Origin: a virus
Lineage: Duplodnaviria; Caudoviricetes
Reading direction: 5' to 3' (one strand)
Virus record (IMG/VR): IMGVR_UViG_3300012667_000182
Coordinates: 1-34,455 of that record
DNA length: 34,455 bases
The notes under the pieces were generated by a model. That model ran no database searches, was not told where the DNA came from, and saw nothing but the letters and a program-made list of their open reading frames with translations. Both the position numbers and the translations under genes were made by a program. Positions within the stretch are counted from its first letter, which is position 1, and each line of letters opens with the position of its first letter. Positions 618 through 34,455 of this stretch are shown piece by piece.

Positions 618-1305
618 AAAACACCTCCGTAGCAGATTGTTCGCCAAATAAAACTCTAGCTGTAGCATCCTGCCGCATTTGATGCTCTGTTTTCTTAGAT
701 TGGTCTTTTAACACCCATTCAGCTTTAAATCCCGTCCAACCCCTAGCGCAAATTTCTTGTAAAGCGTCATTCAAAGAAATGTTAGCTTTTCTTGCTTCAC
801 GCTCTATGCCTTTCAAAGCGGTTTCCGTTATTGCGGCTTTCTTGGCTTTTCTTTGCTGAACAAAGTCTTCCCAAACTGACTGCAAAACGCCGTCAGGCGT
901 ATGTAGTTTATTTGGTTGTTGGTTAGTGGTTAGTGTTTCTTGTTTAGGGTTATTTTGGGTTAGGCTTGGGTTAGGCTTGGGTATCCCATGGGTTTTTTTA
1001 GGTCTTCCGCCCTTGATTCCATTGAGTTTTTGCTTCTCTATAAACCCGTGATAACTAGCTATTTCTACATCAGCACGTCTGTTTATGTACCCGTTTTCGG
1101 TGTACTCAAAAAACTCATTTAGTATTGATTTAACGATTCCAGACTCTATGCGTAACCTACGGCTAACCCATGGGATATCGGTGGGTATTGGTGCTTCTGT
1201 GTCGTAATACATATCCAAAAGTCTGCGATATGTAATGTCCTCAAGAGGGGACAAGTGCATCGTGTGTTTGTTGTAATCACCGATGTTGAATTGATAATAG
1301 TGCAT
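589..1305 (-). CDS. YdaU/DUF1376 family replication initiator (lambda O-like)
   Basis: N-terminus MHYYQFNIGDY..HT.HLS.LE...YRRLLD.YY is the DUF1376 signature; also a KGGRP motif, internal iterons and a C-terminal W.DF...RKAKKA..T domain. Confidence 0.85.
   Translation of the reverse strand: MHYYQFNIGDYNKHTMHLSPLEDITYRRLLDMYYDTEAPIPTDIPWVSRRLRIESGIVKSILNEFFEYTENGYINRRADVEIASYHGFIEKQKLNGIKGGRPKKTHGIPKPNPSLTQNNPKQETLTTNQQPNKLHTPDGVLQSVWEDFVQQRKAKKAAITETALKGIEREARKANISLNDALQEICARGWTGFKAEWVLKDQSKKTEHQMRQDATARVLFGEQSATEVFYENNTKLLG
905..998. repeat. Putative replication origin: 11-bp-period iterons plus a T/G-rich tract
   Basis: TTGGGTTAGGC (955), TTGGGTTAGGC (966), TTGGGTATCCC (977), ATGGGTTTTTT (988); adjacent TGGTT repeats at about 913-931; located inside the initiator gene like lambda ori. 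Confidence 0.65.
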
Positions 1306-1316
1306 TTGCAAACCCT

Positions 1317-1407
1317 AAAAAAAAGGCTTCACCTGAACACGCAATTCCTTTTTTAAGGGAATCTGGCAGGACGAGCCAACACTCGCTGCGTATTCATGTG
1401 AAGCCTT
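1317..1407 (-). ncRNA. C4/CI-like antisense RNA (three-way junction followed by a U-tract)
   Basis: Long stem 1323-1343/1387-1407 with inner hairpins 1344-1362 and 1372-1385. Junction CCUGCCA and loop UGUUGG are complementary to upstream UGGCAGG (1423-1429) and CCAACA (1407-1412). Confidence 0.7.
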
Positions 1408-1436
1408 GTTGGAATTATCACCCCTGCCAAGGGATG
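1407..1436 (-). promoter_or_regulatory. a1/b1-like target boxes in the leader of the C4-like RNA
   Basis: Hairpin CAUCCC-UUGGCA-GGGGUG (1419-1436) displays one box; CCAACA at 1407-1412 is the second. Confidence 0.65.
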
Positions 1437-1441
1437 TACAA

Positions 1442-1470
1442 ACTATAAAACTATCTTAAAAAAAAGTAAA
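1442..1470 (-). promoter_or_regulatory. Sigma70-type promoter for the C4-like RNA/replication operon, with an operator in its spacer
   Basis: TTTACT (1470-1465)-17 nt-TATAGT (1447-1442); predicted start about 1436, at the first leader hairpin; operator variant at 1446-1459. Confidence 0.65.
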
Positions 1471-33580: not shown

Positions 33581-34455
33581 CTTAATAATTCCCAGGCTGT
33601 TGCTGCACATAAAGGGACTTGTCCATTTCCAATGGCTTTAAGTCTGTCCACCCTAGCGGCCACCCCATCAACCACTCTACCCACGTTGGGTTCAATTGGC
33701 CACTCGTATTGCTTACAGACTGCGATAAGCTGACCTGTTTTCCTATTTCTATTCTGCGTTGTACGCAATTGCTCGATAAATTCCCACGATTTCGGTTGTC
33801 CGATGCTTGCGGAGTAGGCCAATTTTGACGTTCCATCCAAACCGCAGTTGCCAATGGATTTCCCGCAAATCTTCCCCTGCTGTTTTCTAGTTTCATTGCC
33901 CCCCCTGCGCTGGCTATCGGAGTCGGCCATTCCAACCGTTTCTTGAGTGCTTTCCGACTGTTGCTGCCGCCGTCCATGCCAGTTGTGTTTGGCGTGTGAA
34001 AAAAAGTTTTGTTGTTCGGCTCTAATCCAGATTCTTTCACGCTGATGGTTTGCACCAACGTCTGCTGCGGATACAACACCCCATTTTGCATCAAACCCCA
34101 TCGAGGAAAGGTCTGCAAGGACAACTCCAAGTCCTCTAGTAGTGAGCATTGGGCTGTTCTCCACAAATGCGTATTGGGGTCTAACTTCGCCAATGATTCT
34201 CGCCATGTGTTTCCACATACTTGATCGTTCTCCGTCAATTCCTGCTCCTCGTCCTGCTGCGCTGATGTCCTGGCATGGAAATCCGCCAGATACAACGTCA
34301 ACAATTCCTCGCCACGGTTTTCCGTCAAAGGTTTGTACGTCATCCCAAATCGGGAAAGGCGGGAGAAGTCCGTCATTTTGTCGGGCGCACAATACGCTTG
34401 CTGGATAGGGTTCCCATTCAACGGCGCAGACTGTTCGCCATCCGAGAAGTTTTCC
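33577..34455 (-). CDS. C5 DNA cytosine methyltransferase, catalytic chain (motifs II-VIII and X)
   Basis: GGFPCQDIS.AG (IV), FVENSP (VI), HQRERIW (VIII), RLKAIGNGQV (X); motif I lies at 191-1 across the junction; no motif IX in this frame. Confidence 0.9.
   Translation of the reverse strand, partial: GKLLGWRTVCAVEWEPYPASVLCARQNDGLLPPFPIWDDVQTFDGKPWRGIVDVVSGGFPCQDISAAGRGAGIDGERSSMWKHMARIIGEVRPQYAFVENSPMLTTRGLGVVLADLSSMGFDAKWGVVSAADVGANHQRERIWIRAEQQNFFSHAKHNWHGRRQQQSESTQETVGMADSDSQRRGGNETRKQQGKICGKSIGNCGLDGTSKLAYSASIGQPKSWEFIEQLRTTQNRNRKTGQLIAVCKQYEWPIEPNVGRVVDGVAARVDRLKAIGNGQVPLCAATAWELLR
33582..34455 (-). CDS. Overlapping +1-frame methyltransferase partner chain (TRD-like modules and motif IX)
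   Basis: Open over the whole methyltransferase; HTP/WPTP/WPTP modules and LNPTWVEWLMGWPLGWT, which resembles motif IX. Confidence 0.7.
   Translation of the reverse strand, partial: ENFSDGEQSAPLNGNPIQQAYCAPDKMTDFSRLSRFGMTYKPLTENRGEELLTLYLADFHARTSAQQDEEQELTENDQVCGNTWRESLAKLDPNTHLWRTAQCSLLEDLELSLQTFPRWGLMQNGVLYPQQTLVQTISVKESGLEPNNKTFFHTPNTTGMDGGSNSRKALKKRLEWPTPIASAGGAMKLENSRGRFAGNPLATAVWMERQNWPTPQASDNRNRGNLSSNCVQRRIEIGKQVSLSQSVSNTSGQLNPTWVEWLMGWPLGWTDLKPLEMDKSLYVQQQPGNY
34313..34455. repeat. Terminal overlap, right copy (divergent allele of 1-143)
   Basis: See 1-143. Confidence 0.95.

Follow-up and report, generated by a model that had tools for sequence, protein, structure and literature searches.

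The window, that is, the whole stretch of DNA analysed here, is a 34.5-kb phage contig (34,455 nt) rated 100% complete by CheckV. As its two ends (1–143 and 34313–34455) overlap by ∼140 nt, with scattered mismatches, it represents a near-complete circular genome. The features of the locus described in this section all lie on the minus strand. The gene at 589–1305 encodes an O-like replication initiator of the DUF1376/YdaU family (PF07120, E 3.8e-22; PHROG “primosomal protein”). Within this gene lies a repeat with an 11-nt period (955–983), which could be a set of origin iterons as in lambda O. The second gene of the operon (234–620; phrog_1524, E 1.3e-6) belongs to a family without known function; its position suggests a P-like role. 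A Cro-like gene (1821–1600; PF14549, E 1.5e-9) is found upstream of the leader, and a terminator-like hairpin (1594–1574) between this gene and the replication promoter would isolate the promoter. No match to an integrase or a CI-like protein was found among the 29 and 46 window proteins scanned, which left out several small ORFs of the structural region. A C5-methyltransferase region spanning the contig ends (33577–34421 and 1–206) contains two long open frames that overlap, each with a match to PHROG methyltransferases.

The leader of the operon begins with a sigma-70-type promoter-like site, TTTACT-17-TATAGT (1442–1470; TTTACT 1470–1465, TATAGT 1447–1442). It matches the consensus at 9 of 12 positions in our promoter scan, which gave 7 sites in total with 2.8 expected, and the predicted transcript start is near 1435–1436. 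At this point lies the leader hairpin CATCCC/GGGGTG (1419–1436), which displays box1 (TTGGCAG, 1424–1430) in a 6-nt loop starting with UUGG, a loop that we take to fit the YUNR U-turn. Box1 is the counterpart of the C4 target a1 and is complementary to a junction further downstream (1370–1364). Box2 (CCAACA, 1407–1412), the counterpart of b1, adjoins the base of a long closing stem and is complementary to a hairpin loop (1381–1376). The 5′ strand of the closing stem, P1, occupies 1387–1406, and the stem as a whole spans 1407/1406–1324. It encloses the hairpin P2 (GCGAG-UGUUGG-CUCGU, 1371–1386), with a loop that is anti-box2 (b′ in C4), the junction CCUGCCAG (1363–1370), which is anti-box1 (a′ in C4), and a small hairpin P3 (1344–1362), which was assigned by covariation and comparison with C4 and stands in place of the closing stem of C4. 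The 3′ strand of P1 (1324–1343) was assigned by folding and covariation. Directly 3′ of P1 a U8 tract (1317–1324) completes a predicted intrinsic terminator, and the ATG of the initiator gene at 1305 follows 12 nt past the last U.

The initial annotation of this locus had placed the promoter, the hairpin, both boxes, the stem, the U8 tract and the YdaU start at these minus-strand positions, and we found all of them there. Its box1, TGGCAGG (1429–1423), is complementary to the junction as claimed, but the register has to be moved one base in the 5′ direction to agree with the family (TTGGNNG, 1430–1424). The terminator is not an element apart but is formed by the RNA’s own closing stem. The 156-nt leader region folds at z = -4.0, and none of 200 shuffled sequences folded as well. 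The junction had been described as single-stranded. This holds for the cloverleaf of the family but only in part for the window allele, in which the lowest-energy fold pairs the junction part CUGC internally and lies 5.4 kcal/mol below the family cloverleaf; the junction of this allele is ∼30% unpaired at four positions in the fold model. No second copy of the leader RNA was found within the window.

Sampling and Size of the RNA Family

The first set of related leaders was drawn from 80 viral loci retrieved by the initiator protein and 120 further loci found by a pattern scan. It gave 104 distinct cores, and removal of 13 without a foldable closing stem left 91 members. As the pattern used for this set had fixed part of box1, we repeated the collection with a pattern covering the RNA body only. 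This leader-blind set, which overlaps the first, came from viral and metagenome scans yielding 240 matches, of which 3 cut-off ones were removed, and consists of 163 distinct sequences with 162 members as judged by the stems alone. The element was present in 24 of the 80 initiator-retrieved viral loci according to a covariance model built partly from those loci. In 24/24 protein-retrieved loci 6–9 T residues directly follow the stem, although no pattern had required a T tract. The scans estimate ∼500 such stretches in each of the two collections, viral and metagenome. Comparison of these sequences confirms the leader element as a large, conserved and uncatalogued RNA family of uncultured phages. 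None of the 162 leader-blind members is an orphan RNA without boxes.

Outside these collections the element was rare. A pattern that recovers 73/91 known members gave 9 matches in 185,579 species genomes, one of which was a true member (L207) and eight of which were chance matches; this single occurrence would fit rare integration or poorly sampled hosts. L207, a contig of 9.7 kb that resembles a phage, was binned with Betaproteobacteria, and this one bin hints weakly at a host in that class. The covariance model detected no member in 150 genomes of the family to which the bin belongs. One member of the RNA family is classed as a provirus by IMG/VR. Three sequence queries against the phage set matched only 3 uncultured records, from Manatee Spring, and no cultured phage, and a single query against the plasmid collection gave no match. 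A pattern with a base other than C before the AAC of the junction gave 1 chance match only. We found no publication describing the RNA family in a literature search that left most subscription papers out of reach; the accessible parts of an attenuator survey (PMC2965389) and of PMC12360218 hold nothing on the leader element.

Conserved Anatomy and Covariation of Boxes and Anti-Boxes

The arrangement seen in the window recurs throughout the 91 members. A -10-like hexamer ends 10–15 nt 5′ of box1 in 76/91 members, as against 2–13/91 in six shifted windows, a placement that makes the leader hairpin the likely site of transcript initiation; 42/91 satisfy the complete -35/-10 rule. The leader hairpin, of 4–8 bp and with 18 arm types, is present in all 91. 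P1 is 17–20 bp long and carries one mid-stem mismatch, at pair 9 in 45/91 and at pair 10 in 35/91. Among the 88 members with a called ORF, 86 have the first start codon 15–22 nt after the first U. The ribosome site comes after the U tract and has no overlap with any helix or with either box. The CCAC-like tail of canonical C4 stems is absent after the stem of the leader RNA.

An alignment could be made for 67 of the 91 members, in which 95.6% of the cells pair and two-sided changes occur in all six helices. The leader hairpin is 100% paired (two-sided changes in 3/4 pairs), P1 shows two-sided changes at 16/17 pairs, and P3 is 83.7% paired with such changes at 3/5 pairs. The helix formed by box1 and the junction is 100% paired, that formed by box2 and the loop 97%. 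None of 500 shuffles reached the covariation score of this alignment. In the full set of 91, box1 matches the junction exactly at its two free positions in 90 members, the remaining one having a G-U pair, with five alleles represented. Box2 occurs as 28 five-base alleles and forms 5/5 Watson-Crick pairs with the loop in 80/91 (85/91 counting G-U pairs). This degree of box pairing was reached in 0/10,000 permutations.

The leader-blind set gave the same result. All 162 members have an exact complement of the 7-nt junction within 40 nt upstream, where 95 were expected by permutation, and box1 is again represented by 5 alleles. Box2 pairs with the loop over at least 5 bp in 158/162 members, with 34 box2 alleles, and 0/5000 permutations reached the observed box pairing. 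The permutations ignore kinship, but whatever the tree, no fewer than 33 separate changes are required to give 34 box2 alleles. The two-box logic of the initial annotation, with boxes that covary with loop and junction, is thus borne out by the alignment of homologues that it had proposed as a check. Four members (L244, L291, L338/L180 and L459) have an imperfect box2/loop pairing of 3–4 bp and are possibly escape alleles or intermediates.

Relation to C4 and Similar RNAs

The initial annotation had described the element as C4/CI-like and had suggested a search with the Rfam models of C4 (RF01695, threshold 45 bits), c4-a1b1 (RF03163; clan CL00128) and c4-2. This search gave no relevant match in the window. 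Nor did these three models or isrK match any member locus; P1, P4 and N15, used as controls, scored 69–79 bits with the C4 model. We therefore cannot place the element in any of these Rfam families, but kinship with C4 is seen in the core. A core profile of 18 positions, built from 81 family members only, was applied to 24 of 25 C4 loci from bacterial genomes, the weakest being omitted, and ∼6,000 positions were ranked. It puts the true C4 core first in 22/24 loci and 9th and 62nd in the other two. For phage P1 the C4 core likewise came first, at 24.1 bits, and no position among 154,398 control positions reached 16 bits. The core of P4 ranked second at 6.1 bits, and that of N15 fell outside the top 5. 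Three bacterial genomes (G304, G274 and G326) hold 27, 12 and 9 canonical C4 matches, far above what prophage counts suggest.

The likeness to C4 consists in a three-way junction, a hairpin with the b′ loop followed by a 7–8-nt a′ linker, and a core of the form GCYGG..CCRGU-CYGYCAAC. The core consensus of the family is GCUGG-loop-CCAGUCCGCCAAC and that of Rfam C4 is GCCGG-loop-CCGGUuUgCcAAC, and the P2 consensus of the family, GCUGG..CCAGU, has the same arms as the C4 RNA of phage P1. As in P1/P7, an upstream a-box in a hairpin loop is followed by a b-box, the two being complementary to a′ and b′; the RNA comes from the same transcript as its targets, and alleles vary between relatives. The order of the helices differs, however. 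In C4 the closing stem is followed by the small hairpin, the b′ hairpin, a′ and the second strand of the closing stem, whereas in the family the order is closing stem, b′ hairpin, a′, small hairpin and closing stem, so that the C4 order is not found. We read the family as a circular permutation, in which the three-way junction of C4 is opened at a different helix, and we favour common descent with C4 over convergence.

The targets are also laid out differently. Box2 abuts the stem in the family but lies ∼65 nt upstream in C4, and the family has the U tract at the point where canonical C4 RNAs (P1, P4, N15 and the C4 loci) carry another a-box, immediately 3′ of the stem. The downstream target copies of P1/P7 and P4 are lacking, as neither an a2/b2 copy nor a seqC-type copy as in P4 was found in the family. 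Comparison of the loop with the 150 nt downstream gave 4.99 for cognate and 5.11 for non-cognate combinations, and exact 6-mers of box1 and box2 occur downstream in 10/91 and 2/91 members, respectively, with ∼3 expected for each. The C4 system of P1/P7 controls icd/ant; the family has no icd/ant downstream and no separate upstream terminator. RNase P acts in the maturation of C4/CI-type RNAs, according to the available sections of PMC5499578.

The position of the element ahead of replication genes is shared with the CI RNA of P4 (seqA/seqB/seqC). This RNA is cut from its own leader and prematurely stops transcription of the replication genes, as stated in the accessible text of PMC4825925. In both the P4 CI RNA and the N15 CA RNA the helices follow the canonical C4 order, with a separate upstream terminator hairpin and downstream box copies; in the family, RNA and terminator are instead one helix, located ∼17–19 nt ahead of the first start codon. 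The isrK model (RF01394), which represents the upstream part of the P4/N15 system, detected P4 and N15 at 61–62 bits but nothing in the window or the members. The c4-2 motif (RF02944) is called a likely distant C4 homologue in the portion of PMC5737381 available. With this model (threshold 41 bits) 0/5 member records matched at E values up to 10, and none of 20 member loci at E values up to 5. Like the family, c4-2 is a C4-related motif.

Predicted Folding of the Growing Transcript

In simulated folds of the growing transcript, box2 pairs with the loop in 77/91 members just after the loop emerges, and box1 pairs with the junction in 90/91 after P3. Box2 stays paired after P3 in only 59/91 nascent folds, and the lowest-energy nascent fold of the window allele has box1 paired and box2 unpaired. 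The full-length folds of the 91 members contain neither box pairing. The 5′ strand of P1 was enclosed in 91/91 nascent folds with free boxes as compared to 1/91 with blocked boxes. The direct-path barrier to the terminator fold averaged 16.6 kcal/mol with free boxes and 2.7 kcal/mol with the boxes forced unpaired, the former being higher in 91/91 members. Since the barrier is low when the boxes are blocked, pairing in cis would favour read-through and pairing in trans would favour termination. The trapped form is less stable than the finished cloverleaf by ∼20 kcal/mol, and read-through therefore depends wholly on kinetics. These estimates consider nested structures, without the polymerase or a box2 pseudoknot on an intact P2. 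There was no sign of a classical antiterminator, as the leader against the 3′ strand of P1 gave 6.41 for both cognate and non-cognate combinations.

Downstream Genes, Box Alleles and Phage Group

In 44 members scanned, the first downstream gene is of initiator type in 25 (several families), ParB-like in 4, an HNH or other endonuclease in 6 and small or unassigned in 9. Where the first gene is of another type, an initiator-type gene is often second. The position in front of replication genes rather than an antirepressor gene, as given in the initial annotation, thus applies to the family, but it is not new; gating of replication genes by a C4/CI-type RNA has already been described for P4 (PMC4825925, accessible text). 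In five members (L016:2387–2498, L094, L131, L150 and L157) the RNA is separated from the next gene of the replication region by a gene for an HNH or other endonuclease. This gene order would keep the RNA switch ahead of the operon.

Box alleles had been expected to define specificity groups. Among pairs of members with initiators at least 85% identical, which are not mutually independent, the box classes differ in 15/21, including pairs at 99% and 100% identity. In 19 of these 21 pairs, leaving out two cross-subtype pairs, box2 differs at 40% of the sites and P1 at 5%. Such divergence between near-identical phages is what would be expected of specificity groups, but many of the alleles could alternatively stem from compensated drift. 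One member, L007, has box1 TTGGCGG and junction CTGCCAG, with a G-U pair, as compared with the window, L001 and L008. Its initiator is 100% identical to that of L008, whose boxes differ, and the box cassette looks as if it had been exchanged by recombination.

The absence of CI and integrase from the window, in the proteins scanned, is as the initial annotation had it, but we found no special tie to the RNA. A tyrosine integrase is present in 1/21 RNA-bearing records and in 1/15 relatives that share the initiator but lack the RNA; none of these 36 records has an S24 domain. As relatives without the RNA show the same lack, it belongs to the phage group. We have thus rejected as unsupported the idea of the RNA as a specific replacement of CI, in a comparison of integrases and S24 domains that did not extend to serine recombinases and partition systems.

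In sister phages among L014–L080 (for example L052:598–665, L018:1796–1864 and L027:2907–2984) the Rfam int-alpA RNA occupies the same slot before DUF1376 genes, and 3/7 such loci score above threshold. We compared 35 distinct leaders of the int-alpA-like type, which carry 20 different loops; their second loop is complementary to boxes that lie downstream, close to the ribosome site. The mean run between second loop and box is 6.0 for cognate and 4.1 for non-cognate combinations, a difference reached in 0/10,000 permutations. It is likely that these leaders, too, form an RNA switch whose specificity varies.

Discussion

Comparison between members demonstrates the fold, the two box pairings, the U tract, a core like that of C4 and a location ahead of replication genes. 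From these features we consider it probable, though by no means certain, that the leader RNA is a conserved, circularly permuted relative of C4 and that it attenuates transcription of the phage replication operon from which it is itself made. During synthesis, the folding models predict that box2 pairs with the loop and box1 then with the junction, forming a ring around the 5′ strand of P1. This ring would delay the terminator, and the polymerase would read into the initiator gene. By analogy with C4 and CI, each terminated transcript would yield a finished RNA able to pair in trans with the two boxes of later transcripts, freeing the stem and leading to termination. As termination would make more of the RNA, a positive feedback may result; the replication genes would be active in a newly entered cell and silent after the RNA has accumulated. 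The RNA would also be likely to silence an incoming phage whose boxes have the same letters, but not one whose boxes differ. Superinfection immunity and copy-number control, both put forward in the initial annotation, would be possible roles on this account.

The strongest alternative is a purely cis-acting kinetic attenuator, in which the finished RNA is inert in trans and the extent of read-through is determined by how fast the polymerase moves, by pausing or by a protein of phage or host. All covariation lies within one molecule, and the cis trap by itself accounts for read-through. The lack of orphan RNAs among the 162 members and of an RNase P-type tail also agrees with such a device. It leaves unexplained, however, a C4-type junction that displays both anti-boxes in the finished fold, it gives no reason for box1 to sit in a hairpin loop, and it does not account for the difference between box2 (40% of sites) and the stem (5%) in close relatives. 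We regard it as rather unlikely.

We think it less likely again that the pairings are real but serve another output. The RNA could affect processing, stability or translation of the leader, or promote read-through in trans, with the U tract a weak or constitutive stop. There are precedents, in that the C4 RNA of P1 acts on icd/ant translation (PMC12197685, available part) and the related IsrK acts positively in trans (PMC4825925, accessible text). A translational role sits poorly with a ribosome site that lies 3′ of the U tract, outside the helices and clear of both boxes, and the loop shows no preference for its own downstream 150 nt (4.99 cognate, 5.11 non-cognate). Blocking the boxes moreover lowers the barrier to the terminator in 91/91 members.

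An attenuator of the type known from plasmids such as pIP501 and pT181, which use similar attenuation, would involve an antisense RNA from the opposite strand, with the boxes of secondary importance. The available portion of PMC4981023 describes such a design upstream of a rep gene, with the pIP501 antisense RNA, RNAIII, inducing premature termination in the repR leader. In the window a plus-strand promoter-like site (1271–1298) does point into the leader. Such sites are found in 11/90 members and in 4/89 of a control window, in a consensus scan as opposed to a transcript map, and the site falls in initiator codons. In pIP501 the antisense RNA comes from a convergent opposite-strand promoter, whereas the anti-boxes of the family lie on the same strand as the boxes, and an opposite-strand RNA gives no cause for their covariation. 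This explanation is very improbable. Chance complementarity around an ordinary terminator can be dismissed. Any one sequence will contain many matches of six or seven bases, but the leader-blind set (162/162 and 158/162) and the covariation tests refute chance for the family.

If the leader RNA is a self-made attenuator as we propose, circular permutation in nature has turned the stem of a classical antisense RNA into its own terminator and given the RNA a new output. We also put forward, as a speculation that may well be wrong, that a single RNA serves as antisense repressor, target and terminator at once. It would form a protein-free, bistable replication switch across a sizeable group of aquatic phages without repressor and integrase, setting a lytic against a quiet carrier state and dividing the phages into dozens of RNA-coded exclusion groups, with sister phages using int-alpA instead. 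The 34 natural box2 alleles could also be drawn on directly as RNA-controlled terminators of ∼110 nt, which may be orthogonal to one another. The switch would explain, in a way open to testing, how lambdoid-like phages that have neither CI nor integrase limit their replication and exclude their kin.
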